Below, piece by piece: positions 7,888-33,870 of a stretch of DNA of 43,225 bases. The notes under the pieces are model-generated. The model saw only the letters and a program-made list of their open reading frames with translations, was not told the DNA's origin and did no database searches. The first letter of the stretch is position 1. The number at the start of each line of letters is the position of its first letter. This stretch comes from Candidatus Undinarchaeales archaeon. Its GTDB lineage: Archaea; SpSt-1190; JASMDC01. Made by a program: the position numbers and the translations under genes. The DNA is taken from NCBI GenBank assembly GCA_030753015.1, contig JASMDC010000030.1, forward strand, positions 1 to 43,225. The letters run 5' to 3'.

Positions 7888-9219
7888 CTATTTATCGAGC
7901 ACCTGCTCCGGATCGTCCATCATCTCGATGAACCAGAGCACGGCAGGAAGGTTGTTATCGACCACATCGTCGATGTCCTCCTCGTCGGGATTGAACTGCG
8001 TGAAGGTGTTGCCCCATCCGCCTCCGCCTTCCAGCTCGACGGTGTAGGCGAGCATCCCCTTGGAGTCCGCCCAGTCGGTGTACGTACCGCTGGCCAGGGC
8101 CGTCCGGCCGCCGTGCATCACGTCGTACGGGCGCTCCATGAGCTCGCGCATCCCATTGCCGATGGCGCGGTAAAGCTCCTCACGCTCGCCATCCTCGGTG
8201 GTGTAGTCGGGGGCGTACTGGTACTCGCCACCATAGGAATGAAACGCCAGCGTCCCCTTGAAATCATGCTCGGCCACGAACTCGGCCATGGCCGTGGTCT
8301 CCTGCTCGCTCATGGCCTCGGGACCACGGTAGGTCTGGTGCCAGTAATTGCCGCTGGCACCGGGCTTGCCCCAGGCCTCCGAGAAGTTACGGTTGAGGTC
8401 CACACCATGGAGCGAGGACGACCTTTCGGCCCAGTTCCCCTCCTCGACGAGCTCGCTGTTATCGCGGGCGTTCTTGCGGTGGTCCGAGTCACCGTACCGC
8501 CGCACCTGCTCGGCCACGATCATCCCGCCATCGGTATTGAAGCTCGGGATTATCCAGGTGTCCCGGCTGTCCACCAACTTTGTGATATAGGCGTCCTTGC
8601 CGTAGCCGTCGACCATCGTCTTGGCCACGTCGAGGGGCACCTCCACCGCGATGGCCTCCCGGGCATGGAACTGGCCGACAAGTAGCACCTCGGTCCGCGC
8701 CTCGCGGTCCTTCACGCGAGCGTCGCTGCCGATGCGTATGGCGTAGATCGGATTACCGAGTCCACTCTTCCCGATGACCTCGACATGAGCGAGGTCCGGT
8801 GCCTTCTTCTCGAGAGCGTACAGTTCCTCGGCGACCTCCTCGGGGACGTGGTACTTGCCCAGACCACCGTCCCTGAGAGGCGAATCGGTGGGTATACGCT
8901 GCCAGGAACGGACATACTGTCCCTGCTCGACATACTTATCAAGGGCATCGTCACGGTCATAAGCGCCCCCTTCAGCGGGGAGCACCATCTCCTTGGGAAG
9001 CCGTATCTCGTAGTCGCCGAGGTCGATCCGGTAGTCGTCTGCCAGCTCGTGCTCAAGCAGCTCTTGGTGGGCGGGAGGCGTCGTTGCCGGATGGTCCGCC
9101 GCGTACGCTATTGGTGCGATAGCGGTGATGGCCGTGGCACCGAGGAGGGCATAGGTGGTGGCACGCTTCACCACACGGGCGAGCACACCCTCACCATCGC
9201 CGTCCCCGGCTTCTTCCAC
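7888..9219 (-). CDS. Secreted M14-family zinc carboxypeptidase (carboxypeptidase T-like)
   Basis: HAREA (His/Glu Zn ligands), GVDLNRNF, YRGP..SEQE, FHSYG, YTVEL; signal peptide ending AYA; leader motif IDLGDYEIRLP. Confidence 0.9.
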   Translation of the reverse strand: MEEAGDGDGEGVLARVVKRATTYALLGATAITAIAPIAYAADHPATTPPAHQELLEHELADDYRIDLGDYEIRLPKEMVLPAEGGAYDRDDALDKYVEQGQYVRSWQRIPTDSPLRDGGLGKYHVPEEVAEELYALEKKAPDLAHVEVIGKSGLGNPIYAIRIGSDARVKDREARTEVLLVGQFHAREAIAVEVPLDVAKTMVDGYGKDAYITKLVDSRDTWIIPSFNTDGGMIVAEQVRRYGDSDHRKNARDNSELVEEGNWAERSSSLHGVDLNRNFSEAWGKPGASGNYWHQTYRGPEAMSEQETTAMAEFVAEHDFKGTLAFHSYGGEYQYAPDYTTEDGEREELYRAIGNGMRELMERPYDVMHGGRTALASGTYTDWADSKGMLAYTVELEGGGGWGNTFTQFNPDEEDIDDVVDNNLPAVLWFIEMMDDPEQVLDK

Positions 9220-9263: not shown

Positions 9264-10964
9264 TTACTCGTCGTCCCAGAAGGTCTCGAGCTCGTCGGTC
9301 TTGTTGGTGACCACCCACTCGTTCGGCGAGACCTCTTCAAGGTGGTACCCGTTCTTGCCGAACCGGGATACCTCCACCTTGTCCTTGCCGTCATCCAGCT
9401 TCCAGATCTCTTTCTCTCCCATAGCCTTGATGCTTTTGAGCACGGGGATGAAGTCCTTGATGCGGCGCTTGTGCGTGAGGTCGACGGCCTCCTCCTCGGG
9501 GCCGTTGTGCTTGATGTACAGATCGCCCTCGTTGAAGGCGACAGCATAGTGGTTGTCGTCCTCCTTGACGATCTTACCCTGAGAACCCTTGAAGGACACC
9601 TCCCAGCCGGAGTCGAAGATGTAACTGTCACCATCGTGGATGAAGGCAGTGCCCTCGATGGTGGTCTTGACCTCGGGCTTCTCGTGGTAGAGCGAGAAGA
9701 GGAAGTTGGAACCCACCCAGAGGGCGGCGCCGGCGGCGGCCACGGGCACGCTGGAGACAGGCCACGCCTTGGTGGCGGCCACGGTCCCCGAGTAGGTTCC
9801 CAGGTAGACGCCGCTGCCGATGGACGACTCCACGCCCATGATCTGCCAGAAGTTCTCCGAGTAGTCGTCGTGCTCGTGCTCCTTCTTGTTGATGATCTGA
9901 TCGTGGATGGCTAAGTTGGCCTTACCGCTCATTGTACCGGAGATGGCGCTGGCCACGGTGGCCGCGCCGTAGATGCCGATGAACGCGTAACCGGGGTTCT
10001 CCCCTAAGTGCTTGAGGATGTCCGGGTGGAGCCCAAAGTAGCTGGCGCCGGTAACGGTGCCCAGCCCGGCCACGTAGAGATTGACCTTCTTTAGTTCCTC
10101 CATAGGTTTCTCGGAGTTGACGGCGTTGTCGACGACGCTTCCAAGGAAGCTCTCGCCGATAATGCCAAGGGCGGGGCTGCCGATGTTGCCGATGGAGGTG
10201 ATGGTTGAGGCGATGCCGTAAGCAGCACCCTGCTCCCACAGCTTGGGGGTGATGACGCCCAGGAGCATGGCCGCACCGACGTTCCCCATAAGGTCGCCGA
10301 CCTTAAGGACGGCGTACTCAGGGTCCTCCTTGAACAGACGGTAAAAGACCTTGAACTTGTCCATGAAGGACTTCTCGTCCATCTGGTACATCTCGAGGGA
10401 GAGATCGTCAGGGATGCCGAAGAAGCTCTTGAAGTCCTCGTTGAAACCGAACTCCTCGAACTCAACGGTCTCTTTGAGATTGAAACCGTTCCCCTTGAGG
10501 TACTCCTTGAGGCCAGGGTCAGCGTCATCGGGGACCGGCAGTTTCTTGAGGCCGATTAGAGAGCCGAAGAACTTGCCCTCCCCCCGCTCGGTGATGACCT
10601 CCGTACGGTAGGCCATGGCCGGGTGGAAGGCGGGATCCTTTACGTCATACGCCGTAAAGACCGCATCCTTACCGGCGGCCGCAGCGACGCGGTAGGCGTC
10701 CACGTGCATGCCCTCCTCGTCGGTGTGGTACACCACGGAGAACCGCGCACCGTCGTACCCGGCGTTCACCAGGTCCATGTACTGGTCCTCCAGCCCGAAG
10801 TTGGCCTTCGCGAACTCGAGATTGTTCGGGTTCAGCTGGAACTCGTCGTACTGCGCTCCCGCTACGAAGAGCGGATTCGCGTCGAGCTTGCGTGTAAGAA
10901 TCTCAGAGGCAGTGTTGTTCTCCTCTTGGAAATCCTCTTCGGCGAGGACTGCTGCATCATACAT
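9264..10964 (-). CDS. Hypothetical protein with a central multi-helix hydrophobic region and acidic soluble termini
   Basis: Long ORF with host codon usage; likely start ATG 10964 (about 26 nt from the minus-strand TTTTTAAA box) or 10982; several Gly/Ala-rich hydrophobic helices in the middle. Confidence 0.8.
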   Translation of the reverse strand: MYDAAVLAEEDFQEENNTASEILTRKLDANPLFVAGAQYDEFQLNPNNLEFAKANFGLEDQYMDLVNAGYDGARFSVVYHTDEEGMHVDAYRVAAAAGKDAVFTAYDVKDPAFHPAMAYRTEVITERGEGKFFGSLIGLKKLPVPDDADPGLKEYLKGNGFNLKETVEFEEFGFNEDFKSFFGIPDDLSLEMYQMDEKSFMDKFKVFYRLFKEDPEYAVLKVGDLMGNVGAAMLLGVITPKLWEQGAAYGIASTITSIGNIGSPALGIIGESFLGSVVDNAVNSEKPMEELKKVNLYVAGLGTVTGASYFGLHPDILKHLGENPGYAFIGIYGAATVASAISGTMSGKANLAIHDQIINKKEHEHDDYSENFWQIMGVESSIGSGVYLGTYSGTVAATKAWPVSSVPVAAAGAALWVGSNFLFSLYHEKPEVKTTIEGTAFIHDGDSYIFDSGWEVSFKGSQGKIVKEDDNHYAVAFNEGDLYIKHNGPEEEAVDLTHKRRIKDFIPVLKSIKAMGEKEIWKLDDGKDKVEVSRFGKNGYHLEEVSPNEWVVTNKTDELETFWDDE

Positions 10965-10987
10965 GAAGCCAACGGGCGCCATCGTCG

Positions 10988-11277: not shown

Positions 11278-13746
11278 CTAGGCAGCCGCCTCGGCGCCCT
11301 CAGGTGTACCCTCGCCTGACGTCTCGCCCTCGTCCTCTTTCTTCGTGATCTGGAAGTGGAAGAGCGATCGCGTCGACTGCCAGCGGATTCCGCTCTGCAT
11401 CCCCTGGTACATGTGGAAGGCCTCGGTCTGGTACTCGATGAAGGGATCCTTCTGTGCGTAAGCCCGGAGGTGGACACCGCGCTTCATCTCGTCCATGCCC
11501 AGAAGGTGATCCTTCCATGACATGTCTGCGGCGTGCAGGAGGACCTGTCGCTCCACCTGCCCGATTATCTCCGCCCCGACCTCAGCCTCCCGCTCGTGGT
11601 AGCGTTTCATGGCCTCGTTCGTGAGGTTCTCGGTCAGCTCGTCGGCGTTCTTGACCGAGCCAACGTTCAGGTCGGCCACGTCGATGCCGAAGACGGCCTG
11701 GCAGTTGTAGGTGAACTGCTTCTCGAGGAACTCGTTCTCCCACTGATGGGGCTTGGGGCCCTCAGCGGTGAAACTCTCAACTACTTCCTCTGCCGTCCGC
11801 TCGATGACGTTGTACACGTCCTGCTTCAGGTCAGGCCGCTCAAGGATTACGTTGCGGTCGTCGTAGAATATCCCTCGCTGTGTGTTCATGACCTCGTCGT
11901 ACTTCAGCAGGTTCTTGCGCATCTCGAAGTGCATGCCCTCGACCTTCACCTGCGCCTGTCGGACGACCTTGTCGATGAGCTTGCCCGATAGCGGCTCGTC
12001 CTTGTGGACCCCCGAGAAGAACTTATCAATCTTCTCCGGCCCGTAGAACCGCAGCAGCTCGTCCTCAGCGGACAGGTAGAACCGACAGGAACCGGGATCC
12101 CCCTGGCGGCCCTCACGTCCCAGGAGCTGGTCGTCGATGCGACGTGAGTCATGACGCTCGGTACCGATCACATGGAGACCTCCGATGTCGGCCACGCCCT
12201 CACCGAGCTTGATATCGGTACCGCGACCGGCCATGTTCGTGGCCACGGTCACAGCACCCTTCTGCCCGGCCTGGGCGATGATATCGGCCTCCTGCTTGTG
12301 GTGCTTGGCATGAAGCACCTGGTGGTCGATGCCACGGGCGATGAGCATATCGCTAAGGTGCTCGGACACATCGATGGAACGGGTGCCCACGAGCACGGGG
12401 CGGCCTGCCTCGTGCTGGGCCACGATGTCGTCGACGATCGCGTCGTACTTCTCCTCCGCGGTGCGGTATATCAGGTCCTGCTGGATGTCGCGCTGCATGG
12501 GCTCGTTCGTGGGGACCTGGACGACGTCCATGCCGTAAAGGGAGATGAACTCGCCCTCCTCGGTCTTTGCGGTCCCGGTCATGCCCGAGACGCGGTCGTA
12601 CATCCTGAAGAAGTTTGGGAACGTGATGGAGGCGTAGGTCTGGGAGGGCTCGCGGACCTTCATGTCGGTCTTACCGGTCGCCAGCATGTCGTTGTTGGCC
12701 TCTTTCGCCTCCAGGGCCTCGTGGAGCCCGGCCTCGTATCGCCTGCCGTGCATGAGGCGCCCGGTGAACTCGTCGACGATGAGCAGCTCGCCGTCGGAGA
12801 CCACGTAGTTCTTGTCCTTGGTGAAGAGAGAGTGTGCGGCGATGCACTGGCGTGCTGAGTGATAGAGGTGCATGGTCCGCTCGTCCGTGGGCGAGTCCAC
12901 TCCGAGGGCCTTGGCCAGCTTGTCATCCCCCCGCTCGGTGAAGAAGGCGAGATGGTCCTTCTCGTGCACCTCGTAGTCGCGCCCGGGCTCGAAGTCGCGG
13001 ACGATACGGTCCATGATGAGGTACTCGCGGGCCGTAGTGCCGGTGCGTCCGGAGATGATAAGAGGCGTCCTGCCCTCGTCGATGAGGATGGAGTCCACCT
13101 CGTCGATGATGGCGTAGTGCATGCCCCGCATGACCCGATCCTCGGGTCGCCGGACCATGTTGTCTTTGAGGTGGTCGAACCCGAACTCGTTGTTCGTCCC
13201 GTAGGTGATGTCCGCCTGGTAGGCGGCCTTGCGGTCCTCGGGGGACTCGTCATGCTGGATGCATCCCACCGACATCCCCATGAACTCATAGATGGGGGCC
13301 ATCTCCTCGGCATCGCGGCCGGCCAGGTAGTCGTTGACGGTGATGACGTGGACGCCCTTGCCCTCAATGGCATGGAGGTAGGCCGGGAGTGTCGCGACCA
13401 GAGTCTTGCCCTCGCCTGTCTGCATCTCGGCGATACGCCCTTCGTGAAGGACCACACCTCCCTTGATCTGGACATCGTAGTGGCGCATCCCGGTAACGCG
13501 GTTGCTTGCCTCGCGCACGGCGGCATAGGCTTCGGGCATGAGGTCGTCCAGGCTCTCGCCGGCAGAATAACGGTCCCGGAACTCGTCGGTTTTTCCCGCA
13601 AGCTCGTCATCGGAGAGGGTAGTCATCTCATCAGCGTAGCTGTTGACCTCCTCGACGATGCCGTCCAGGCGCTGCCGCTCGCGGTGGTTGTACGAGAAGA
13701 AGGACTTCACTCCGTCGTATAATCGATCGAGCAGCCCGTCCTCCAT
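11278..13746 (-). CDS. secA: Protein translocase ATPase SecA (no C-terminal Zn-binding motif)
   Basis: MRHYDVQ, AEMQTGEGKTL (Walker A), VTVNDYLA-like, YGTNNEFGFD, IIDEVDSILIDEGRTPLIISG, GMTGTAKTE, ATNMAGRGTDI, GTERHDSRRIDDQL.GR.GRQGDPG, YAQKDP. Confidence 0.97.
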   Translation of the reverse strand: MEDGLLDRLYDGVKSFFSYNHRERQRLDGIVEEVNSYADEMTTLSDDELAGKTDEFRDRYSAGESLDDLMPEAYAAVREASNRVTGMRHYDVQIKGGVVLHEGRIAEMQTGEGKTLVATLPAYLHAIEGKGVHVITVNDYLAGRDAEEMAPIYEFMGMSVGCIQHDESPEDRKAAYQADITYGTNNEFGFDHLKDNMVRRPEDRVMRGMHYAIIDEVDSILIDEGRTPLIISGRTGTTAREYLIMDRIVRDFEPGRDYEVHEKDHLAFFTERGDDKLAKALGVDSPTDERTMHLYHSARQCIAAHSLFTKDKNYVVSDGELLIVDEFTGRLMHGRRYEAGLHEALEAKEANNDMLATGKTDMKVREPSQTYASITFPNFFRMYDRVSGMTGTAKTEEGEFISLYGMDVVQVPTNEPMQRDIQQDLIYRTAEEKYDAIVDDIVAQHEAGRPVLVGTRSIDVSEHLSDMLIARGIDHQVLHAKHHKQEADIIAQAGQKGAVTVATNMAGRGTDIKLGEGVADIGGLHVIGTERHDSRRIDDQLLGREGRQGDPGSCRFYLSAEDELLRFYGPEKIDKFFSGVHKDEPLSGKLIDKVVRQAQVKVEGMHFEMRKNLLKYDEVMNTQRGIFYDDRNVILERPDLKQDVYNVIERTAEEVVESFTAEGPKPHQWENEFLEKQFTYNCQAVFGIDVADLNVGSVKNADELTENLTNEAMKRYHEREAEVGAEIIGQVERQVLLHAADMSWKDHLLGMDEMKRGVHLRAYAQKDPFIEYQTEAFHMYQGMQSGIRWQSTRSLFHFQITKKEDEGETSGEGTPEGAEAAA

Positions 13747-13770
13747 CAAGTTGGCCTCGGCCCCGTACGG

Positions 13771-24130: not shown

Positions 24131-24320
24131 CTTCCCATAGCTATACCTATCACTTAGGCCCCCCGAGTCGTGCTATCTTTATACACCTGATGCCCGCCCA
24201 AGATGCCAAGTGACACGGCTGCCGAGAGCACCATCGATACGGTATGCGACCATATCTCCCCTATAGTATAATGTCTCAGATGCTCGAAGTGTCTATCGAT
24301 GGGAAGTGGATGGATCCGCC

Positions 24321-25625
24321 TCACACTTCCTTGAACCTTGCTGAGAAAGAAGCGTCCTCGCCCGAGATATTGGTGACCGCCAGCCAGAGCGTCCCGTCCT
24401 CGTGTATATCGATGTCCGTTGCTCCACCGTTGAGCGTGTCCGCCACCAGAGTAGGTCCCGATGACCCCACCATAGCAGCGCGCAACCGGAGCCCGTCGGA
24501 CGAACCGCTCTCAACCCTCACTGTGCGCCCCGCGGTGACCTGGGCCTTCATGAACGACATCCCTCCGCGCCCGGACACATCGGCATAGCAGGTCAGTCCA
24601 TCGGAGAGCTCGGTCGCCTTCACCTCACCTATGTCTAGCCGCTCGAACGCGTACATCCCCCCCTCGAACGAGGTGTCGTTCACCGCGATGGCCAGGCCCA
24701 GGTCGGCGAACACGGTGTCGAGGTCGAGGGAGGGGTTCAGACCCCCGAGCCTCGCGTCCAGCGAGTCCTTCCCGTGCAGTGGATCGGCCGTGAGGTCCTT
24801 GATGAAGCTGTCACCGAACCTCTCCCAGAGGTAGTCGCCGAAGAGCATGTAGAGGCCGTAGTGCCCCCGACCGATCTTGTCCGGGATAAGAGCGTGGGAG
24901 GGGTCGCGCAACCAGGTATCGACCCAGCGTTCGTCCGCACCGTAGCCGGTGAGCACCATCGCCACCTCGCTCATGGCCTCGTTGAGCCAGTTCTCCTCAT
25001 CCCGATCGTGGCCCCAATGGATGAGGTGCTGAAGCTCGTGGGCCTGTACGGAGAGCATGTAATCGGAGTCGGGAGCGTAATGGAGCGTGTTGATGTGTAG
25101 GGTCTCATGTCGGTTGGACACAGGGACGTCGAGCTGGTCCTCGACCTTGAAGTAGCCGTCGAAGCTGTGCCCGCGGTACCCCTCCATCTCGTACAGGAAG
25201 AGGTAGACCTTCGGATCGTTGTCGAACTCGTCCGGTGGGTCGCCGAACAGGCCCGTGACCTGGTCGTAGAGACCGTGCTCGGGATCGGAAGGTGTCCCTT
25301 CGTCCCAGGCCCTGATTAGGTTGGCCACCGTCCCCTCGTCAACGGAGTGGCCCCAGGCCGCGTCCTCGACGACGACGTACACGTTCCTCCCCTCACCGCG
25401 CACACTGGCCGCGATCTGCTCGTCCCGGGGGGGCATCACCGACAGGTCCCACACCCACCACATGTCGGTTGCGGGGCCGTACGGTCCCGGGACCGTGACA
25501 TCGTGGTCCGCATAGGCCGGAGGGTACTGGCAGAGGGGTCGGTGGGCCGTTGAGTATACCGGGGCTTGGTCCTCGAGCTCAGGAATGTATTCCGCGACCT
25601 CTTCGACGGGACCTGCGTCTTCCAT
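24321..25625 (-). CDS. Zinc metalloprotease (M30/hyicolysin-like gluzincin)
   Basis: FGDPPDEFDNDPKVYL, DGYF, AHELQHLIH, WLNEAMSE. Start ATG 25625 or GTG 25637 (GTGA overlap); no signal peptide visible. Confidence 0.82.
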   Translation of the reverse strand: MEDAGPVEEVAEYIPELEDQAPVYSTAHRPLCQYPPAYADHDVTVPGPYGPATDMWWVWDLSVMPPRDEQIAASVRGEGRNVYVVVEDAAWGHSVDEGTVANLIRAWDEGTPSDPEHGLYDQVTGLFGDPPDEFDNDPKVYLFLYEMEGYRGHSFDGYFKVEDQLDVPVSNRHETLHINTLHYAPDSDYMLSVQAHELQHLIHWGHDRDEENWLNEAMSEVAMVLTGYGADERWVDTWLRDPSHALIPDKIGRGHYGLYMLFGDYLWERFGDSFIKDLTADPLHGKDSLDARLGGLNPSLDLDTVFADLGLAIAVNDTSFEGGMYAFERLDIGEVKATELSDGLTCYADVSGRGGMSFMKAQVTAGRTVRVESGSSDGLRLRAAMVGSSGPTLVADTLNGGATDIDIHEDGTLWLAVTNISGEDASFSARFKEV

Positions 25626-25633
25626 CGGGCCGC

Positions 25634-27181
25634 TCACTCTTTGCCCTGCTGCGACTCCAGGTAGATCTGGAGCCACAGAGGGAGCTCGAAGGCCTCCTCG
25701 ATGGTGGGGTTCCGCTTCTGCATCAGCTCGTCCCACGACGTGTCCTCTGCGAACCCGGTGGCCTCGTACAGCTGCTTGTAATGATCGTACTCCCGCTGCA
25801 CGCTGGGGACGTAGATGTGGAGCCCCGTTGCAGTGCCATGGGACTGGGCGTTGTGCTGCTCGGCAACGACCACCTGTCCGATGGACTTTATCACCTTGTT
25901 GGCAGCATCGCGCACTGCGGGTTCGTACTTCTCGTTGGCCGCGAGCCGCTCGGCCAGGTCACCCAGGTCCACGAGGGGCTCCGGGAAACCGAGCAAAGGA
26001 TTGGTGCCGAAGTGAAGGCTTGCGTCGTTGGCCTTGTTGAACTCCTCCATGGGGACCTTCGATCCGAGCAGAGCATCGGCCAATCCATCCACGGCCTCGG
26101 CCACCTTGGGCATCTTGGCCACCTCGGTGGCAGAGAGTGTCCTGAGGTTCTGCTGGTCGTTCTCGGCCTCCTTGACGATGAGGTAGCTCATCAGCTTGGG
26201 CGAGAGCTCGGGGCGCGGGCCGTCCTTGAAGGCCTTGGAGTACTTCTCCATGACCACAAGGGCACGGTTGCCCATGATGCCCTCGTAGGGCCAGCCCTCG
26301 GCGCCCTCATTCTCCTCGCTGGCCACCAGGAAGTCGGTGACGCTCCGTACTTGGTAGGCGCCCTCGGCCGATGCCATGAGGCACGCGTCGTACCCGAGCA
26401 CGTCGATCTTGACGCCCGTCTTCTGCTGGACCTTGCCCAGAGCCTCCTGGACCTGTGCCCAAGTCATGGAATCGGTACCCGCGGAATCATCGATAATCGA
26501 GCCGGTCCAGCCCATACCGTGGTCGGAGATGACGAGCATGTAGTTCTTCGCAGGGAAGTTCTGGACGCCCCACTCCACGAAGTCCTGGAGGTTCGCAGGA
26601 TCGGCCATGTCGATCTGACCTAGCTCACCCAGAACGGGGGAGTTGAGCTCGCCCTTAGTACCATCCTTCTGGAGGTGATAGCGCCGGGCACCGGTCCACG
26701 CTCGCTTGCCCATGTCGATCTTGCCGTCTGCCTTCTCGCCGCGGTCGAGCTGGACGATCACGTCCGCGTTGTCGGTGGAGCCTATCTTCTCCATATCGTC
26801 CACATCGGCGACCTGATAGGCCTCAAGATTGTTGTCCGCGGCGGAGTAGACGAGGATGGTCCACTCCTTGCCTTCGGCCTGGTCGTCCTGGGCAGCGTAG
26901 TTGAGCGGGATGGACGACGGGAGAGTGACCTGATAGTCACCCATATCGATGACGTTGCCTTGTTTGGCCTGTTCGGTCTCGATGACGTACGCCGGCTGAG
27001 GGTCCGTTCCGGGAGGCGGGAGCGTGTTGGGGAGCATGCCGCCACCGATGCCGACAATAGCACCACCGATGGTGGCTACAAGTCCAAGCCCTGCGGCGGC
27101 GTAGGTCGCCACCTGCTTGGTAGTAAGCCCCTCTTCCTTCTCGTTCGCTTCCGGTTCAGGTTCCTGCTCGACGTACATCAT
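25634..27181 (-). CDS. Clostripain-family (C11) cysteine peptidase with conserved leader, copy 3
   Basis: KEWTILVYSAADNNLE, VQLDR, FPAKNYMLVISDHG.GW (catalytic His), GYDACLM (catalytic Cys), ASEENE..EGWPY. Confidence 0.92.
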   Translation of the reverse strand: MMYVEQEPEPEANEKEEGLTTKQVATYAAAGLGLVATIGGAIVGIGGGMLPNTLPPPGTDPQPAYVIETEQAKQGNVIDMGDYQVTLPSSIPLNYAAQDDQAEGKEWTILVYSAADNNLEAYQVADVDDMEKIGSTDNADVIVQLDRGEKADGKIDMGKRAWTGARRYHLQKDGTKGELNSPVLGELGQIDMADPANLQDFVEWGVQNFPAKNYMLVISDHGMGWTGSIIDDSAGTDSMTWAQVQEALGKVQQKTGVKIDVLGYDACLMASAEGAYQVRSVTDFLVASEENEGAEGWPYEGIMGNRALVVMEKYSKAFKDGPRPELSPKLMSYLIVKEAENDQQNLRTLSATEVAKMPKVAEAVDGLADALLGSKVPMEEFNKANDASLHFGTNPLLGFPEPLVDLGDLAERLAANEKYEPAVRDAANKVIKSIGQVVVAEQHNAQSHGTATGLHIYVPSVQREYDHYKQLYEATGFAEDTSWDELMQKRNPTIEEAFELPLWLQIYLESQQGKE

Positions 27182-27189
27182 TAACCCTC

Positions 27190-28689
27190 CTACTGGCCTC
27201 CCTTATTCTGATTCGCCCGCTCCTGGAGGAACTCGTCCCACTGGGTGTCCTCTGCGAAGTCGAGCTCACCGTACTTATCACCGTCGAAGGAGTCCTGGCC
27301 CTCTCCAGGTGGACCGTTGAAGGGCACGTATATGTGCAGCCCGTGGGCGTTGGGATGGCTGGTCTCGTTGTGCTGCTCGGCGACGACAACCTGGTCGACG
27401 GCCTCGATGACCTTTGCCGCGGCCTCGCGCACATCAGCGCCGTAGGCACCATTGGCAGAGACCTTCTCGGCCAGCTCTACTGCGTCCACGAGCGGCTCCT
27501 CAAACCACCACTGCCTCCCAAAGTGGAAGCTCTCCTCGGCGATCTTGTTGAACTCGCTGATGGGCACCTTGGACCCTCGCAGCGCCTCGGCGAATCCGTC
27601 CATGGCCTCGGCGACCTTGGGCATCTTCTCCACCTCGACGGCAGAGAGAGTAGGGAGGTTCCGCTGGTCGTTCTCGGCCTCCTTGACGATGAGGAAGCTC
27701 ATGAGCTTCGGAGTGAGCTCTGGGCGCTTACCGTCCTTGAAGGCCGTGGAGAACTTCTCCATGACCACCAGGGCCCGGTTGCCCATGATACCCTCGTAGG
27801 GCCAGCCCTCGGCACCCTCCAGCTCCTGGCTCGCCACCAGGAAGTCGGTGACGCTCCGTACCTGGTAGGCGCCCTCGGCCGACGCCATGAGGCAGGCGTC
27901 GTACCCGAGCACGTCGATCTTCACACCGGTGCGCTGCTGGACCTTGCCCAGTGCTTCCTGGACCTCGACCCAGGTCATCTCGTGGTCCCCGGAGGAGTCG
28001 TCCCCGATGGCCCCGGTCCATCCGGCGCCGTGGTCCGAGATGATGAGCATGTAGTTATCGGCGGGGTAGTTGTTCACACCCCACTCGAGGAAGTCCGCGA
28101 GCACGTCGGGATCGGCCATGTTGACCTGCCCGAGCTCGCCCATCATGGGGGAGTTGAGCTTCCCTTTCTCGGCGTCCTTCTGGAGGTGGTAGCGCCGGGC
28201 GCCGGTCCAGGCCCTCTCTCCCGAGTCGACCTGGCCCTCGGCGACCGTGCCGCGGTCGACTTGGATCACGACGTCCACGTACTTGTCAGAACCGACCGTC
28301 TCCATGTCGTCGTTGTCGGCCATGAGATACGGCTCGAGGTTGTTGTCGGCGGCCGAGTAGACGAGGACGGTCCACTCCTTGCCCTGCGTACGGGCGTCCT
28401 GGTCCGCATAGGTCAGGGGGAGGGACGAGGGGAGGGTTACCTTGTAGTCGCCCATGTCGATGACGTTACCCTGAGTGCTCTGTTCGGTCTCGGTCACATA
28501 GGCCGGACGCGGGGTCGTGTCCGGGGGCGGCTGGAACGGCGGAAGGATGTTGATCGCACCGCCGATGGCGGCTACGAGCCCAAGGCCCGCTGCGGTGTAG
28601 GCCGCGACCTGCTTGAACGTAAGCCCGTCCTCTTCTCGTTCCGGCGCTTCATCGTGCTCGTTCTCATTCTCGATATACATCATGATCAC
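27190..28689 (-). CDS. Clostripain-family (C11) cysteine peptidase with conserved leader, copy 2
   Basis: KEWTVLVYSAADNNLE, YPADNYMLIISDHGAGW, GYDACLM, GLHIYVP; GGTGA SD. Confidence 0.92.
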   Translation of the reverse strand: MIMMYIENENEHDEAPEREEDGLTFKQVAAYTAAGLGLVAAIGGAINILPPFQPPPDTTPRPAYVTETEQSTQGNVIDMGDYKVTLPSSLPLTYADQDARTQGKEWTVLVYSAADNNLEPYLMADNDDMETVGSDKYVDVVIQVDRGTVAEGQVDSGERAWTGARRYHLQKDAEKGKLNSPMMGELGQVNMADPDVLADFLEWGVNNYPADNYMLIISDHGAGWTGAIGDDSSGDHEMTWVEVQEALGKVQQRTGVKIDVLGYDACLMASAEGAYQVRSVTDFLVASQELEGAEGWPYEGIMGNRALVVMEKFSTAFKDGKRPELTPKLMSFLIVKEAENDQRNLPTLSAVEVEKMPKVAEAMDGFAEALRGSKVPISEFNKIAEESFHFGRQWWFEEPLVDAVELAEKVSANGAYGADVREAAAKVIEAVDQVVVAEQHNETSHPNAHGLHIYVPFNGPPGEGQDSFDGDKYGELDFAEDTQWDEFLQERANQNKGGQ

Positions 28690-28699
28690 CTGTTGAACA

Positions 28700-30175
28700 T
28701 CACGGACCCGACGGGGTCTGCTTCATCTTCTCTGCCCGATCCTTGAGCCACTCGTCCCACTGGGTGTCCTCGGTGAACTCGAGCTGCTCGTACGCCTCGC
28801 CGTCGTAGGACCCTGCCCACCAGCTCGACGGGACGTAGATGTGCAGCCCGTGGGAGCCGGGATGGGTCGAGTTGTGGTGCTCGGCCACAATCACCTGGTC
28901 CACGGCCTCGATGACCTTGTTGGCGGCGAGCTTCACGTCCTTGCCATACTGGTCGTTTGCGGCGAGGTTCGTGGCCAGGTCGACCACGTCCACCAGGGGC
29001 GAGCCCCAGCCGTAGTCCTGGCTGTTGCCCTCAATGGTATTGAACTCGGTGACAGGGACCTCGGACGCACGCAGGGCGACGGCGAGCCCGTTCACGGCTG
29101 ATGCCACCTTGGGCATCTTCTCGAGCTCTGTTGAGGAGAGCGTGTCGAAAGTGGCGGTATCATTGGCGCCTTCCTTGACGATGAGGTAGGAGTAGAGCTT
29201 GGGCGTGAGCGCGGGGCGGTCGGTGTCCTTGAAGGTGCGGTTGAACTTCTCCATGACGTCCAGTGCCCGCTGGCTGATGATACCCTCGAAGGGCCAGCCC
29301 TCGACGCCCTCCAGCTCCTCGCTGGCCACCAGGAACCCGGCCGCGTCGCGGACCTGATAGGCGACCTCGGTCGATCCCATGAGGCAGGCATCGAATCCGA
29401 GGATGTCGATCTGTGCACCAGTGCGCTCCTTGACCCGCTCGAGCGCCTGGTCGAGCTCAGGCGTGGACATCTGTCCGGCGTGGTGTGAGCTGTCGTCGAT
29501 GAAGCCCTCCCAGCCCGAGCCGTGGTCGGCGATGATGAGCATGTAGTGCTTGGCGGGGAAGTTCTTGACGGTGAACTCCACGAACTCCGCCAGTGTCTCG
29601 GGAGCGGCCATGTCCACCTGTCCGAGCTCCGCTAGCACCGGTGAGTTGTAGTTGACCGGGTCGGTATCCTTCTGGATGTGGTAGCGCCGGGCACCGGTCC
29701 AGTCGCCGCCCTGGGGCGTGTCGGCGGTGTATCCGCGGTCCACCTGGACCACGACGTCCATGTAGTCGTTGGATCCCAGCTTCTCCATGTCGTTGATGTC
29801 GGTGAGCTGGTCGTTCTCGAGGTTGTTGTCGGAGGCGGAGTAGATCATGACGGTCCATTCCTTGGCCTCAGCGGGAACCCGGGCGTCCTCGCCGTAAACG
29901 AGAGGGATGTCCTTGGGCAGAGTGACCTGGTAGTCGCCCATGTCGATGGTGCCGCCCTTGACGGCGTCCTGCACTTCCGTGACATAGGCGGGCCGGTAGG
30001 GTCCAGTCCCCGACGCGGGGGTCGCGTCCATGGGTCCCACGGCCGTGCCGATGGCGCCACCTACGGCGGCTGCGAGGCCGAGGCCCAGTGCGGCGTACAC
30101 GCCCACCTTCTTGAGCGTGAGCCCTTCCTTCTCGTTCTCTATTTCCGTTTCGTACTCCGTCTCCATTATCATCAT
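28700..30175 (-). CDS. Clostripain-family (C11) cysteine peptidase with conserved leader, copy 1
   Basis: KEWTVMIYSASDNNLE, FPAKHYMLIIADHGSGW, GFDACLMG, GLHIYVP. Confidence 0.92.
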   Translation of the reverse strand: MMIMETEYETEIENEKEGLTLKKVGVYAALGLGLAAAVGGAIGTAVGPMDATPASGTGPYRPAYVTEVQDAVKGGTIDMGDYQVTLPKDIPLVYGEDARVPAEAKEWTVMIYSASDNNLENDQLTDINDMEKLGSNDYMDVVVQVDRGYTADTPQGGDWTGARRYHIQKDTDPVNYNSPVLAELGQVDMAAPETLAEFVEFTVKNFPAKHYMLIIADHGSGWEGFIDDSSHHAGQMSTPELDQALERVKERTGAQIDILGFDACLMGSTEVAYQVRDAAGFLVASEELEGVEGWPFEGIISQRALDVMEKFNRTFKDTDRPALTPKLYSYLIVKEGANDTATFDTLSSTELEKMPKVASAVNGLAVALRASEVPVTEFNTIEGNSQDYGWGSPLVDVVDLATNLAANDQYGKDVKLAANKVIEAVDQVIVAEHHNSTHPGSHGLHIYVPSSWWAGSYDGEAYEQLEFTEDTQWDEWLKDRAEKMKQTPSGP

Positions 30176-30203
30176 CTCCCGTCCCTGTCATATGATCCGG
30201 TAA

Positions 30204-31622
30204 TCATTGCTCCCCTTCCACTCCGTCGGGATTATCCGTCCCTGTGGGCGGTGGAGCGGAACCGGGATCGGACTGCAGAGCGCGGTCCAACTGGATAATG
30301 CCGTGGCCGTAATACTGATCCCAGCCGCTGCTGCCGCGGTCCAGCGCGGTGGTCTCAAGCGCGGTGCGCACCCGTTCTGGCGTGTTGAAATCGCTGGAAT
30401 AGCCGATCAGCACGGCGGCCGCCCCTGCCACGTGCGGCGCCGCCTGGGAGGTGCCGCTATTGTAGATGTAGGTGTCGTCAAGGCCGGTGGAGCCGATGTC
30501 CGATCCGGGCGCGGCCAGGTCTACAAAATCGCCGTAAGTGGAGAAACGAGAGCGGTTGTCGCTGGAGTCCGTAGACGCCACTGCAATCGTGTTCTCGTAG
30601 GCAGCCGGGTAGTCGATGGTGTTGCTGCCGGAGTTGCCGGCGGCAGTCACCACCGTCACGCCGTGCTCCACCGCATAATTGACGGCGTCTTCCAACGCCC
30701 TGGAGTTAAAAGGGGCTCCCAAGCTCAGATTAATGACGTCCGCACCGTTATCCGTGGCGAAGATAATGCCGTCGACGATGGCGGAGTACCTGCCGGCGCC
30801 GTTCGAACCCAGCACCTTGACCGGCATAATGCGCGCCCCCCACGAGACGCCGGCGACGCCCTCCCCGTTGTTGCTGACCGCCGCTGCAATTCCCGCCACG
30901 TGCGTACCGTGCCCCTGATCGTCCTGCGGGTTGTCGTCCCGGTTGACAAAGTCGTATCCAGGCACGATCTTGGCTGCCAGGTCAGGGTGGTCGAGGTCAA
31001 CCCCGGTGTCCAACACGGCGATTATGACCGAGTTCGATCCGGTACTCAGGTCCCACGCCTGCGGAGCCCGGATGCGCTGCGGGCCGTACTGCAAAGACCA
31101 ATATGTATCGTTGGGCGTTATGTCGAAAGCATGGGCCACGTAGTTCAACTCGGCATATTCCACCAGCCCTGAGTTGTTCAGCGCATCCAACAGTTTCTTG
31201 GCGTCACCATCGCCGGCGCGCAGCAGCTGAACGTCGAGGGAGGAGATCTCGCCCTCGATCCGCGCATCCAGGCCATCGATGAGCGCATCCGAGTCGCTCT
31301 TGTACAAATCTCTACTGAACTTCACCAGCACTTCGTCCGGCACGTACCCCTCGCTGTACACCATGGGGGTGCCCTCGGGAAGGGTGACCTGGTAGTCGCC
31401 CATGTCGATGACGTTCCCCTGGCTGCTGTGCTCGATCTCGGTCAGATAGGCCGGCCGCGGGGTCGTGCCCGGCGGGGGCGGGATGATACTTATGGCCCCG
31501 CCAATGGCGGCCACAATGCCCAGGCCCAGGGCGGCGTACCCGCCGACCTTCTTGAGCGTGAGCCCTTCCTTCTCATTCTCCAAGTCCGTTTCGTACTCCG
31601 TCACCATGATCATCACTCCCAC
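30204..31622 (-). CDS. S8 subtilase (thermitase-like) with the same conserved leader
   Basis: Triad IAVLDTG / QGHGTHVAG / SGTSQAAPHVAG, oxyanion AAGN, prodomain YVPDEVLVKF...VEYAELNY; exact start among 31622/31613/31607 uncertain. Confidence 0.95.
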   Translation of the reverse strand: MGVMIMVTEYETDLENEKEGLTLKKVGGYAALGLGIVAAIGGAISIIPPPPGTTPRPAYLTEIEHSSQGNVIDMGDYQVTLPEGTPMVYSEGYVPDEVLVKFSRDLYKSDSDALIDGLDARIEGEISSLDVQLLRAGDGDAKKLLDALNNSGLVEYAELNYVAHAFDITPNDTYWSLQYGPQRIRAPQAWDLSTGSNSVIIAVLDTGVDLDHPDLAAKIVPGYDFVNRDDNPQDDQGHGTHVAGIAAAVSNNGEGVAGVSWGARIMPVKVLGSNGAGRYSAIVDGIIFATDNGADVINLSLGAPFNSRALEDAVNYAVEHGVTVVTAAGNSGSNTIDYPAAYENTIAVASTDSSDNRSRFSTYGDFVDLAAPGSDIGSTGLDDTYIYNSGTSQAAPHVAGAAAVLIGYSSDFNTPERVRTALETTALDRGSSGWDQYYGHGIIQLDRALQSDPGSAPPPTGTDNPDGVEGEQ

Positions 31623-32671
31623 TCCACCCAGTCGGGATTGTAGGTGCCCAGGGGCAGGTCGTCCCCGAACATCGATTGTGGTGAATACCCTAGTTGCGAA
31701 TAAGCGACATCCCGGGGGATGAGCAGATCGCGAACGTTGTTATCGGTGAGATAGGCCTTACCGTCGATGATCGTCTCGGTCCAGGCGTGACCTCCGCCCT
31801 TCATCGTCCCGAGCACCACCACCGAATCGTAACCCTTGGCCTCGAGCAGCGAGTTGGAGGCGAGTGCGTAGTCCTCGCAGTCCCCCCTGCCGAGGGAAGT
31901 GAGGAAGTGCTCCGGGTTCTGCCAGTAGTCGGTGTGACCGAGATGCTCGGCGTCGAAGAAGTACTTCCCCATGAGCGGTTTGCCGTCGGCGAACCGCATG
32001 AACTTGATACCGGATATGGTGTTCTCGCCGATATTTATTGAGCTGGGAAGGTCGCGGACCTCGAGGTTGTTGGCGTAGCCCTGGACGATCTCACTGTCCG
32101 GTGTGATGTAGGACGAGGGATCGTTGGGCATGTAGAAGCCCCGCTGTTCGCCGATCTCCTGGTGCCTGAGCGAGGGGAAGCCGTCGGGGATGCCATCGCT
32201 GTTCGCGTCAGCGTTATCGGGGTGGAGGTCGTAGGCGTCAGCGAGCCCGTCACCGTCCCGGTCGGGGAGCATGAAGTCGGGGTCCTTGCCGTCGATGATA
32301 CCGTCAGCGTCCACGTCAGGATTGGACCAATCCCAGTCCCGGCCGTCGAGGATGCCGTCCCCGTCGATGTCGGGATTACCGGGGTGAGGGTCGATGGAGT
32401 CGTAGAGGTGGTCGCCGTCGGCGTCCGCCATGGCCTGTTCGGGAGAGAGCGTGGGAACGCTGTCGTCGCCCAGCACACGGGTCTTGGGGGGCCCGGGCTC
32501 GGCCTCCTTGCCGAGCAGTGCACCAAGGACGAGCCCACCGGTGATGGTGAGGCCGACCGCTATGAATCCCTTGGCCACAGATTCGGCGTTGAGGTCCTCG
32601 GTGACCGTGTAGCCGTCGGCCGCCGTGGCGGTCCCGGCCTCATCGGTCTCGAGGTCGATGTCCATCGCCAT
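31613..32671 (-). CDS. Membrane-anchored transglutaminase-like cysteine protease with Asp-rich Ca-binding repeats
   Basis: TM helix; D.DGDG..D repeats; DYWQNP..FL...GDCEDYAL, GGHAWTE, downstream D (Cys-His-Asp triad). Confidence 0.82.
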   Translation of the reverse strand: MAMDIDLETDEAGTATAADGYTVTEDLNAESVAKGFIAVGLTITGGLVLGALLGKEAEPGPPKTRVLGDDSVPTLSPEQAMADADGDHLYDSIDPHPGNPDIDGDGILDGRDWDWSNPDVDADGIIDGKDPDFMLPDRDGDGLADAYDLHPDNADANSDGIPDGFPSLRHQEIGEQRGFYMPNDPSSYITPDSEIVQGYANNLEVRDLPSSINIGENTISGIKFMRFADGKPLMGKYFFDAEHLGHTDYWQNPEHFLTSLGRGDCEDYALASNSLLEAKGYDSVVVLGTMKGGGHAWTETIIDGKAYLTDNNVRDLLIPRDVAYSQLGYSPQSMFGDDLPLGTYNPDWVEWE

Positions 32672-33651
32672 CAGTTCCCCTCCCGTACTTCGAGCTCATA
32701 TCCACTCTCGTCGATCTCGTACACCTGGACGCCGTACACGTCCTCGAAGGAGGGGATGATGTGCATGTCCTTGCCCTGGCCTCGCATGTGGAGCGACGCC
32801 TCGAAGTCCTCGATGACCTTGGACGGATCGTTCTGGATATCCTGGTAGAACTGCTGGGCGGCTTTCTTGAGCTCGCCCTTGAAGTAGGGGACACGGTCGC
32901 GTTCGAATGTCTTGACCGCCTCCTCGCCCTCGAAGGCAGCGAGCGTGGCCTCGTCCTTGTACTGCTTCTGGACGGGTTCGAGGTACTCGTTCAGTGTCGC
33001 CTGGACCACCTGGGTGCCCACATATTCGAGCGTTGTCTTCAACGCGCCCTCACGCGAGGAGAACTGCATCCAAATGGCGTCCTTCTCCTGCTCGGAGAGC
33101 GGGCCGTTACCTCCGTTGATCCTGGAGGTCTCGATGGTCTCGATAAGCTTGTGGTAATCGGTCCGGGCATCGAACTGCGCCAGGTTCTCGACGCTGTAGG
33201 ACACCTGGCCGTGGATGTACGCTTCCTTGGCGGCGTCGGCCTTCTGACCGGTGTAGGTTGCGAGCTGCCCGACGGGGATGTCGATGTCGACCGTCTGACG
33301 TTCAAGGGACACCTCCTCGTAGCTGGAGAATGGGACTGGGAGACGAAGGACGAACTTGCTTCCATCGGTCTCGTTCTCGATGTAGCGGGTGCCACCTTCG
33401 AAGTCGAGGATGCCCCGTTCATCGAGCTGGACGGACTCGTGGATGATGGCGCCGGTGTTGGGAGGGACGATACCGACCGTGGACACCATACCGAAACCGA
33501 CCCCGAGGGAGGCGAGACCGAGGCCGATGTACTTGCCGACGGTCATGGCCTGCGCGCCCAGCGGCAGGTCCGAGAACTTAGTTACTTCCTCCTCACGGTT
33601 GTCCGGTTGTAGGTCTTCCTCTTTGAGCTTCTCGTCCTCAAGGTTCCTCAT
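32671..33651 (-). CDS. Hypothetical membrane-anchored protein, first gene of the protease operon
   Basis: Acidic N-terminus, KYIGLGLASLGVGFGMV hydrophobic segment, helical C-terminal part; TGATG overlap with the next gene. Confidence 0.8.
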   Translation of the reverse strand: MRNLEDEKLKEEDLQPDNREEEVTKFSDLPLGAQAMTVGKYIGLGLASLGVGFGMVSTVGIVPPNTGAIIHESVQLDERGILDFEGGTRYIENETDGSKFVLRLPVPFSSYEEVSLERQTVDIDIPVGQLATYTGQKADAAKEAYIHGQVSYSVENLAQFDARTDYHKLIETIETSRINGGNGPLSEQEKDAIWMQFSSREGALKTTLEYVGTQVVQATLNEYLEPVQKQYKDEATLAAFEGEEAVKTFERDRVPYFKGELKKAAQQFYQDIQNDPSKVIEDFEASLHMRGQGKDMHIIPSFEDVYGVQVYEIDESGYELEVREGN

Positions 33652-33749
33652 TTCGGTTACCCCCTAGTTTCATACGTCCGTCCCCGTAGCCACGGCTGCG
33701 GCATGCCATACTGTACCGTGGCGTCCGGACCTCATTCGCCACCCTTCCG

Positions 33750-33781
33750 ACCTTATATAGGTTGTTCCTCCATATATCGGA
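33750..33781 (-). promoter_or_regulatory. Putative TATA promoter of the protease operon
   Basis: CCTTATATAGG (near-palindromic) and CATATATC about 100-130 nt upstream of ATG 33651. Confidence 0.45.
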
Positions 33782-33870
33782 AAATTCCGCGAGAAACGCA
33801 TCACTACGGCTTAGTTACAACTCCGGAGTACGGTGGAAAAAGACACGTTATGACGGATGCGGCGCAGGGT

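Follow-up and report, generated by a model that had tools for sequence, protein, structure and literature searches.

Secretion signals whose variants are shared by many cargo proteins are well known in bacteria, for example YSIRK-G/S, KxYKxGKxW, the autotransporter ESPR and the Bacteroidota lipoprotein export signal, and in Archaea sorting signals serving many cargoes are known mainly at the C-terminus or as pilin-type signals. To our knowledge, the textbook picture of archaeal secretion includes no SecA and no post-translational motor. In the accessory-Sec pathway, serine-rich repeat proteins carry a signal of ~90 aa and behind it an AST segment of 30-40 aa on which targeting depends (PMC6973325), and in Clostridioides difficile secA2 adjoins its substrate gene slpA (PMC7445750). 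The DNA analysed here, called the window, is a 43,225-nt contig (C41) of the 3.85-Mb genome of a Candidatus Undinarchaeales archaeon (G000, the source genome), which was compared with the genome of a sister species of the same genus (G001). At 25634-31622 of the window, four minus-strand genes lie in tandem with gaps of 8-28 nt, three of them (p1, p2, and p3) encoding clostripain-like C11 peptidases and one an S8 subtilase, and all four products begin with the same segment of about 90 residues, referred to as the type-1 leader.

We assign a probability of roughly 0.6 to the reading that this segment is a genus-specific two-part export or anchoring leader, composed of an N-terminally extended Sec-type signal/anchor and a hairpin on the mature side. 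It is best read as a specialised N-terminal export leader, a known kind of element in an unusual host. Like the substrates of the accessory-Sec system (SecA2/SecY2), the leader would have two parts, here an extended signal of ~45 aa and a conserved segment of ~35 aa, and here too SecA paralogues adjoin substrate-like genes. The likeness is architectural only, because neither the motif nor the SecY2 partner of that system was found: three leader fragments and the full proteins gave no NCBIfam match to the KxYKxGKxW signal at E ≤1 and the motif was not seen in the sequences, while each genome has one or two SecA copies and a single SecY instead of a SecA2 + SecY2 pair. Moreover, the two systems share no sequence similarity, the tail is acidic and not basic, the cargoes are hydrolases and not glycosylated adhesins, and the host is archaeal. 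Another partial parallel is the SecA2-only export of SlpA in C. difficile, where a second SecA serves particular substrates whose genes adjoin its own; in the sister species, too, a second SecA is encoded beside a putative substrate gene (233 nt apart). However, the SlpA signal is ordinary, both SecA proteins of our genus are known from their genes alone, and the source genome has one SecA. With the bacterial signal variants named above the type-1 leader shares conserved residues in or behind a Sec signal that are common to unrelated cargoes, which in those variants direct route or site. Those variants are bacterial, widespread and catalogued, whereas the type-1 leader belongs to one archaeal genus and has an acidic tail and a predicted hairpin ~15 residues past the helix.

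The first 87-95 residues of the four tandem proteins align, with at least 16 invariant positions including those of GLT.K.V..Y.A.GLG..A..GGAI, PAY, IDMGDY.VTLP, and P..Y, and the four open reading frames (ORFs) are those in which the first-pass annotation had recognised a common leader. Four sub-parts were distinguished, numbered after p3 (Table 1), of which the last follows the consensus [RQ]PAY[VIL]xE, ~10 variable residues, [ILV][DN][ILMV]G[DEN]Yx[VI]x[LMI]P, and then P..Y. In the alignment of 12 leaders from both species (A3), A63, Y82, and P87 are invariant and Y27, G31, P62, Y64, and V84 are kept in at least 90%. All 12 have one or two K/R directly before the hydrophobic core, within about 6 residues (LKKV, TKQV, VKRA, FRRY, MKY), and a core of about 15-20 residues as expected of a Sec-type signal/anchor. 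The Kyte-Doolittle (KD) 15-mer maximum of the cores is 1.52-2.23 and their Gly+Ala content 30-52%, while the four classical N-terminal signals or anchors encoded in the window reach KD values of 2.28-3.43, above all leader cores. The leader of an M14 carboxypeptidase, encoded elsewhere in the window, reads ...VKRATTYALLGATAITAIAPIAYA/ADHP...IDLGDYEIRLP (also written ...VKRATTYALLGATAITAIAPIAYAADHPATTPPAHQELLEHELADDYRIDLGDYEIRLPKE), the slash marking an A-x-A-like site: its core ends A-Y-A followed by A-D, and in the other leaders G-G-A, A-T-A, G-L-A or S-C-A can be read near the core end by letters only. On account of the basic residues, the core and the A-x-A-like site, the leader reads as an N-terminally extended Sec-type signal/anchor plus a conserved mature-side segment. 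The acidic stretch ahead of the helix, to which the first-pass annotation had drawn attention, is real as a tail, but it does not adjoin the core, and the contrast drawn there with classical Sec signals is not supported, as basic residues adjoin the core and one copy has an A-x-A-like site.

Other signal types fit less well. A Tat signal was rejected, as an RR pair occurs in only one of the 12 leaders (F-R-R-Y-L in the alpha/beta hydrolase of the sister species) and the C11, S8, and M14 copies have KK, KQ or KR. In class III (prepilin-like) signals a short leader of basic character, with K/R at −2 and G/A at −1, precedes a very hydrophobic helix, and the sugar-binding proteins of Sulfolobus are an example of a helix-assembled pilus-like surface structure. 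By analogy, the acidic tail could be cut by a prepilin peptidase and the helix could assemble the enzymes into a pilus-like structure on the surface; some copies do have K-K-V-G directly before the helix, and a further protein of the window has a class III-looking N-terminus. The latter, of 609 aa (13822-15651, minus strand) and without a family match, has an N-terminus reading ...GRGRGQVSLFGLIAIALVVLVIV..., in which we take the motif to be that of an archaeal class III signal. The type-1 tail, however, is acidic and 17-30 residues long, the residues preceding the helix vary (VG, VA, AT, LR, MK), and the helix is Gly/Ala-rich with KD values of 1.5-2.2 instead of very hydrophobic, which makes a prepilin-like function very improbable.

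The part behind the helix was explored by structure prediction. With a 61-row alignment, AlphaFold2 modelled p3 with a predicted local distance difference test score (pLDDT) below 50 for residues 1-72, including a low-confidence helix at 22-31, and placed two short strands at 76-78 and 83-85 (pLDDT 70-87). In the S8 model (67 rows) the helix spans 20-37, and the corresponding strands, 68-70 and 75-77, have pLDDT 48-62, so that a beta-hairpin with its turn at M-G-D-Y is predicted in both contexts. The catalytic domain or prodomain begins at residue ~90-110 in all four tandem proteins according to Pfam (at ~110 in p1, p2, and p3), and the catalytic His218 and Cys264 of C11 are invariant in the 61-sequence alignment. 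One could imagine an intramolecular chaperone or latency peptide, with the segment folded back onto the catalytic domain, and the pLDDT of 67-87 predicted in the C11 model for the hairpin and the next 15 residues would fit packing on the domain. Nevertheless, at least five unrelated folds have this segment in front of them, S8 retains its own fervidolysin-type prodomain (PF22148) at residues 91-160, behind the leader, and the hairpin is not confidently placed in the S8 model; a prodomain or inhibitor function is hardly credible. The statement of the first-pass annotation that the segment is not a known C11 or S8 prodomain was borne out, as Pfam returned no family for the first member and a best E of 0.014 in one of the 12 members, NCBIfam returned none, and a profile search of PDB gave a best E of 0.15. 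The S8 protein scores 226 bits on the NCBIfam model of type VII secretion mycosins, which are membrane-anchored subtilases; the cut-off is 278.75, and it is therefore not a member.

A hidden Markov model (HMM) built from the four leaders was run against all 33,493 stop-to-stop ORFs (≥60 aa) of the source genome and returned the tandem copies (E 7e-48 to 1e-43) and one further ORF, the M14 carboxypeptidase (E 0.0011). The sister species has 11 type-1 copies, on six C11 proteins, the M14 orthologue, an alpha/beta hydrolase (Abhydrolase_1, E 1e-18), two closely paralogous DUF302 proteins (E 4e-12 for the one that was scanned), and a 285-aa protein without a family, compared with five copies in the source genome. 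Searching the latter with A3 gave the five known copies and a 69-aa fragment on contig C53 (2139-2306, minus strand; L028), a broken orthologue of the 285-aa protein: its first 52 residues match with 88% identity, after which the frame is lost and the ORF ends, 69 codons long, pointing to a frameshift or an assembly error. The C11 array of the sister species is longer (L015, 2-2102, minus strand, contig C10), as two additional C11 genes separate the p3 and p2 types, and downstream of it lie the leader-bearing alpha/beta hydrolase gene and the sixth C11 gene, whose leader is divergent. No leader was seen in the ORFs of the two homologues that this hydrolase has in the source genome (C48, 60% and 47% identical).

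Outside these two species the leader was not encountered. Profile A2 detected it in two of 41 genomes (the genus, its class and other archaeal families), and A3 in two of 17 genomes of the phylum, both of this genus. A profile search of 1.84 billion representative proteins gave seven matches at E ≤0.001, four of which are leader proteins of the lineage (S8, M14, a C11, and a 51-aa fragment); the other three are long repeat proteins with 6-9 stretches over profile positions 40-76 and were set aside as spurious, one of them (P0007, with FG-GAP-like repeats) after inspection. Divergent leaders such as those of the sister species (25-29 bits) fall below significance in a search of this size, and distant relatives may exist. 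A pattern search with five leaders gave 23 matches in genome contigs, of which the only one confirmed was the sister species' own contig, and 40 pattern matches with none confirmed in the metagenome contigs of the Joint Genome Institute. A word-indexed search with the S8 leader region returned three proteins, all of this genus, and one close C11 homologue is labelled at NCBI as coming from another metagenome-assembled genome (MAG) of the lineage. The leader was thus found only in this genus. Searching the source genome and archaeal MAG proteomes with an HMM had been proposed in the first-pass annotation, which had seen the leader on the tandem copies; the M14 copy in the window and the 11 copies of the sister species show that it is not confined to these.

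All sub-regions of the leader are under purifying selection. Between the orthologues of the two species, omega (dN/dS) lies between 0.13 and 0.25 in every sub-part and is lowest in the hairpin (Table 1), at dS values of 0.22-0.48, and the leader of p1 taken alone gave 0.02. Omega in the acidic tail is 0.25, which argues that the tail is translated and constrained. Between the S8 leader and the C11 leaders dS is 0.59-1.45 and dN 0.22-0.33 (nucleotide identity 64-75%); their likeness greatly exceeds chance expectation and does not result from very recent copying. These values bear on the simplest explanation, that the leader is merely the N-terminus of one C11 paralogue family copied to its neighbours, with the role of any signal anchor. 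Most copies do sit on C11 paralogues of one array, all five copies of the source genome are on one contig, and the S8 leader is a mosaic formed by recombination between neighbours (see below). On the other hand, divergent copies occur on M14, alpha/beta hydrolase, DUF302 proteins and one protein without a family, distributed over four contigs of the sister species; they keep Y-x3-G in the helix and PAY and Y-x-V-x-x-P in the hairpin at only 19-36% identity, and despite the large synonymous divergence omega between leaders is still 0.13-0.39. Generic signal peptides do not keep residues in this manner, and we regard plain inheritance as improbable.

The origin of the S8 gene shows how the leader can be acquired. 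Its closest relatives are thermitase-like proteins, of Anaerolineales/Chloroflexota where a source is named, with 50-60% identity over ~76-80% of the query; the similarity covers the prodomain and the catalytic domain and never the leader. The N-termini of the 16 closest relatives were inspected, and 14 have an ordinary hydrophobic signal (two are partial), which indicates that on S8 the local leader replaced an ordinary signal. A leader-bearing S8 was not found in the sister species, the best S8 match there being 42% identical and on another contig, and after the transglutaminase-like gene it has a C11 gene at the position of S8. Sliding nucleotide comparison of the start of the S8 gene revealed a mosaic. 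Ahead of the start, 150 nt match the sequence upstream of the first C11 gene of the sister species at 90-97% identity; within the leader, nt 1-100 follow the p3 type (77-95%), nt 100-200 the p2/pX type (82-89%), and nt 206-250 return to the p3 type (88-90%), while past ~nt 265 (residue ~88), just after the hairpin-closing P-M-V-Y, identity to the C11 genes falls to the random level (0.2-0.35). The S8 gene is a graft, in which a Chloroflexota-like cargo stands behind a recombinant mosaic of neighbouring C11 leaders. Because homology ends right after P-M-V-Y, the unit of exchange was the whole leader including the hairpin.

The C11 lineage has gained the leader within the genus as well, since the 12 nearest C11 relatives outside it (36-41% identity) have N-termini of 42-114 residues without a hydrophobic segment (KD 15-mer maximum ≤0.57 in 11 and 1.34 in one). 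These relatives (P0016-P0027, with bacterial labels where given) have long N-termini ahead of a conserved KKKWT(V/I)L start, and one of them (P0019) has a Gly/Ala-rich hydrophobic tail at its C-terminus instead. Six cargo types, purifying selection, mapped recombination and restriction to one genus together uphold the view of the first-pass annotation that the segment is a portable, lineage-specific module.

We propose that in the first part of the leader an acidic cytoplasmic tail, one or two basic residues and a moderately hydrophobic Gly/Ala-rich helix would insert N-in/C-out, leaving the enzyme outside the membrane, where it would stay anchored or, if a signal-peptidase site exists as in the M14 copy, be released. 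The second part, on the mature side, would comprise the Pro-rich spacer and the conserved PAY...GxYxVxLP beta-hairpin, selected in its own right and probably serving a sequence-specific step through which every cargo passes. Recombination would move the leader between genes as one unit, start codon through the closing P..Y of the hairpin, which in this proposal is why it stands on C11, S8, M14, alpha/beta-hydrolase, and DUF302 proteins. Export agrees with the cargoes, as these enzymes are normally extracytoplasmic and S8 keeps a secretion-type prodomain. We infer the topology, Sec dependence, the choice between cleavage and anchoring, and the partner of the hairpin from these features. Several observations weigh against this proposal. 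Cleavage and orientation are read from the sequence; the N-terminal tail has a net charge of −2 to −7 in most copies, which is unusual for N-in and could favour the opposite orientation; DUF302 is no obvious exported cargo; the outside C11 relatives lack a hydrophobic N-terminus, so export is not a given for this C11 subfamily; the hairpin predicted in the S8 model has low confidence (pLDDT 48-62); and only two genomes carry the leader, so that all comparisons concern a single lineage.

The tandem genes belong to a run of seven genes on the same strand (Table 1), which starts with 32671-33651 and continues with the transglutaminase-like gene, S8, the three C11 genes, and 24321-25736. Stop and start codons overlap within it (TGATG at 32671; ATG over TGA at 31613), and Shine-Dalgarno-like GGGAG boxes are present, one of them ahead of the ATG cluster at 30175-30164 of p3. 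The likely start of p2 is the ATG at 28683 and that of S8 the ATG at 31613 or 31607, overlapping the TGA of the upstream gene. RNA-library contigs from three runs of two studies cover 27, 21, and 16 of the 30 bins of 24200-33900 and some bridge gene junctions (e.g. 26755-27498 and 31328-31813), which lends weak support to transcription of the run, as RNA libraries may contain DNA; bins left uncovered carry no information. The stretch is present in marine or seawater metagenome runs of 11 studies.

Table 1. Features of the window discussed in the text. Leader sub-parts are given for p3; omega values are those of the pooled p1, p2, p3, and M14 orthologues of the source genome and the sister species; percentages are identities to the orthologue in the sister species.
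Feature	Position	Strand	Description
M14 zinc carboxypeptidase with divergent type-1 leader	7888..9219	-	leader 8977-9219; Pfam M14 E 7.5e-51; leader HMM match; 93%
572-aa protein, family unassigned, between SecA and M14 genes	9264..10982	-	no hydrophobic N-terminus; 93%
Full-length bacterial-type SecA	11278..13749	-	Pfam SecA_DEAD, PP_bind, P-loop and SW domains; two genes upstream of M14 leader gene; 92%
Last gene of the run, HExxH protein (HELQHLIHW)	24321..25736	-	likely start ATG 25628; hydrophobic N-terminus absent
C11 peptidase p1 with type-1 leader	25634..27181	-	515 aa; leader 26897-27181; Pfam Peptidase_C11 E 2.7e-43; 95%
C11 peptidase p2 with type-1 leader	27190..28689	-	499 aa; leader 28408-28689; Pfam Peptidase_C11 E 8e-40
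C11 clostripain-like peptidase p3 with type-1 leader	28700..30175	-	491 aa; Pfam Peptidase_C11 E 3.6e-42
Leader sub-part 4, residues 61-94, predicted beta-hairpin	29894..29995	-	omega 0.13
Leader sub-part 3, residues 47-60, spacer	29996..30037	-	Pro/Gly/Thr-rich, variable length; pLDDT <50; omega 0.19
Leader sub-part 2, residues 18-46	30038..30124	-	L-T-L-K-K, then helix Y-A-A-x-G-L-G-L-x-A-A-x-G-G-A-I; omega 0.17
Leader sub-part 1, residues 1-17, acidic tail	30125..30175	-	E/D at alternate positions, ends E-G; from alignments; omega 0.25
S8 subtilase with type-1 leader	30204..31622	-	472 aa; leader 31356-31622; Pfam Peptidase_S8 E 5e-61
Transglutaminase-like cysteine peptidase with type-2 leader	31613..32671	-	leader 32486-32671; Pfam Transglut_core E 1e-5; type-2 HMM match
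First gene of the run, no Pfam family, own acidic tail and helix	32671..33651	-	326 aa; TGATG overlap with next gene; 96%

This arrangement suits a different account, in which the signal or anchor is ordinary and the hairpin serves after export, either as a peg by which different hydrolases dock on one surface partner or as a shared processing site at which a maturation protease would release or activate them. Of the four sub-parts the hairpin is the best conserved, and with an N-in orientation it would lie outside the membrane; its two predicted strands form a discrete element behind the flexible Pro spacer. The tandem genes are translationally coupled in one run with two genes for peptidase-like proteins and one for a membrane-anchored protein, an arrangement conserved in the sister species. 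However, the module is also found on lone genes of the sister species (contigs C24, C36, and C4), and no partner was identified. We consider such a post-export handle rather unlikely, and preprotein recognition during export, by analogy with the AST segment, is weakly favoured over docking or processing as the step served by the hairpin. Prediction of a complex between p3 residues 50-94 (12-row alignment) and residues 62-326 of the 32671-33651 protein, its ectodomain, scored 0.00, which in a run without controls speaks neither for nor against binding.

As for the first and last genes of the run, the 32671-33651 protein gave no match in Pfam and PDB sequence searches, and a lead in the ESM Atlas to SPFH/Band-7 proteins (HflC/HflK/flotillin) is weak, with a feature score of 0.89 and TM of 0.36-0.39, both sub-threshold; SPFH proteins partner with membrane proteases. 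The 24321-25736 protein weakly matches the NCBIfam MXAN_6640 metalloprotease model (E 2e-5, below the cut-off). Its N-terminus is acidic and without a hydrophobic helix. The leader HMM does not detect this protein; a stretch in it, P-P-A-Y-A-D-H-D-V-T-V-P-G-P-Y, may be a remnant of the hairpin motif. A further gene of the window, 18467-24130 (minus strand), codes for 1,887 aa that comprise a classical signal peptide, an M23 peptidase domain (E 7e-10), stretches rich in Cys, and linkers rich in T/P. With this gene and those for the C11, S8, M14, HExxH, and transglutaminase-like proteins, the contig is a dense island of exported hydrolases.

A second family of acidic leaders, type 2, was recognised in both genomes. 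Its members read M-Y-D-L-D-L-E-x-D-G-Y ... A-[DE]-G-Y ... [ED]-D-L-[SN] ..., followed by a Gly/Ala-rich helix, and number 28 in the source genome and 32 in the sister species, with none in the 39 other genomes searched. Both transglutaminase-like genes of the window carry it (the one in Table 1 and one with the leader at 40350-40514, minus strand), and the 10 proteins scanned include transglutaminase-like, FG-GAP, TSP3-repeat and LOR/scramblase-like cargoes. The type-2 leader has no Pfam match, and homology of the two types was rejected at an hhalign probability of 4.9%. Type 2 resembles type 1 in its conserved acidic tail, K/R, Gly/Ala-rich helix, genus restriction and diverse cargoes, but its conserved part lies before the helix and not after it, and it has 28-32 copies per genome compared with 5-11. 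Conserved acidic tails ahead of a helix are therefore a general habit of the genus, which makes the type-1 acidic stretch less odd as such and raises the question of what recognises these tails.

The window also encodes a bacterial-type SecA, which is unusual in an archaeon. The source genome contains four TBP genes and several TFIIB genes and no sigma-70 was found in it, and on these grounds the genome is archaeal; a small-subunit rRNA model gave no match in the MAG. The window contig is not a contaminant, because the genus-specific type-2 leader occurs both on it and on contigs carrying TBP or TFIIB. Genomes of the genus measure 3.6-3.85 Mb compared with 0.6-1.2 Mb for the 15 other genomes of the phylum examined. 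Cluster members of the window proteins carry the label 'Methanopyri archaeon', and the proteome is acidic (D+E 14.3% versus K+R 10.1% in 1,466 long ORFs).

The SecA of the window scores 769 bits to solved SecA chains. Its gene, that of the 572-aa protein and the M14 gene follow one another on the same strand, 295 and 44 nt apart; the 572-aa protein had no match in Pfam and NCBIfam and no lead in the ESM Atlas (model pLDDT 0.39). The sister species has a second SecA, 63% identical to the first, on an 8-kb contig (L053, 3068-5542, plus strand). The stop codon of its gene is followed on the same strand, after 233 nt, by a DUF302 gene with the leader. Neither the second SecA nor DUF302 genes were found in the source genome, for which a small missing contig could account. 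SecA is thus present in one copy in the source genome and two in the sister species, each with one SecY. Three type-2 genes lie 1-3 kb upstream of SecA1 in the sister species. With several thousand genes in the genome and about five leader loci, it is by a rough reckoning unlikely to be due to chance that each of two SecA genes stands no more than two genes from such a locus, although both adjacencies may descend from one duplicated block and all of this concerns a single lineage. A literature search joining SecA and Undinarchaeota found nothing, and a search on SecA homologues in archaea brought up no archaeal SecA in titles and the opening lines of abstracts. The argument for a dedicated machinery, which the first-pass annotation had inferred, is circumstantial and consists in the SecA genes upstream of leader genes at two loci. 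Weakly hydrophobic signals of bacteria tend toward SecA rather than the signal recognition particle. In a more far-reaching scheme, the lineage would have acquired a bacterial SecA, in one or two copies, that drives accessory post-translational export via the single archaeal SecY with the type-1 leader, acidic tail included, as address label: the weakly hydrophobic Gly/Ala-rich core would escape co-translational targeting, the hairpin segment would act in an AST-like manner, and new hydrolases, including horizontally acquired ones, could be plugged in by recombining the leader onto them. We hold this extension of the two-part leader to be doubtful.

What the locus offers is a module of ~90 residues, selected in every sub-part, which recombination has carried onto six or more cargo families and which stands beside SecA paralogues at two loci. 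If the SecA route were true, it would be the first SecA-driven, substrate-selective export pathway in Archaea; it would show that a horizontally acquired bacterial motor had been integrated into an archaeal translocon with an address label of its own, and it would provide a ready-made secretion tag. Without the SecA link, the type-1 leader would still represent a new family of specialised signal/anchor, uncatalogued in Pfam, NCBIfam and PDB, that helps to annotate the secretome of this lineage.

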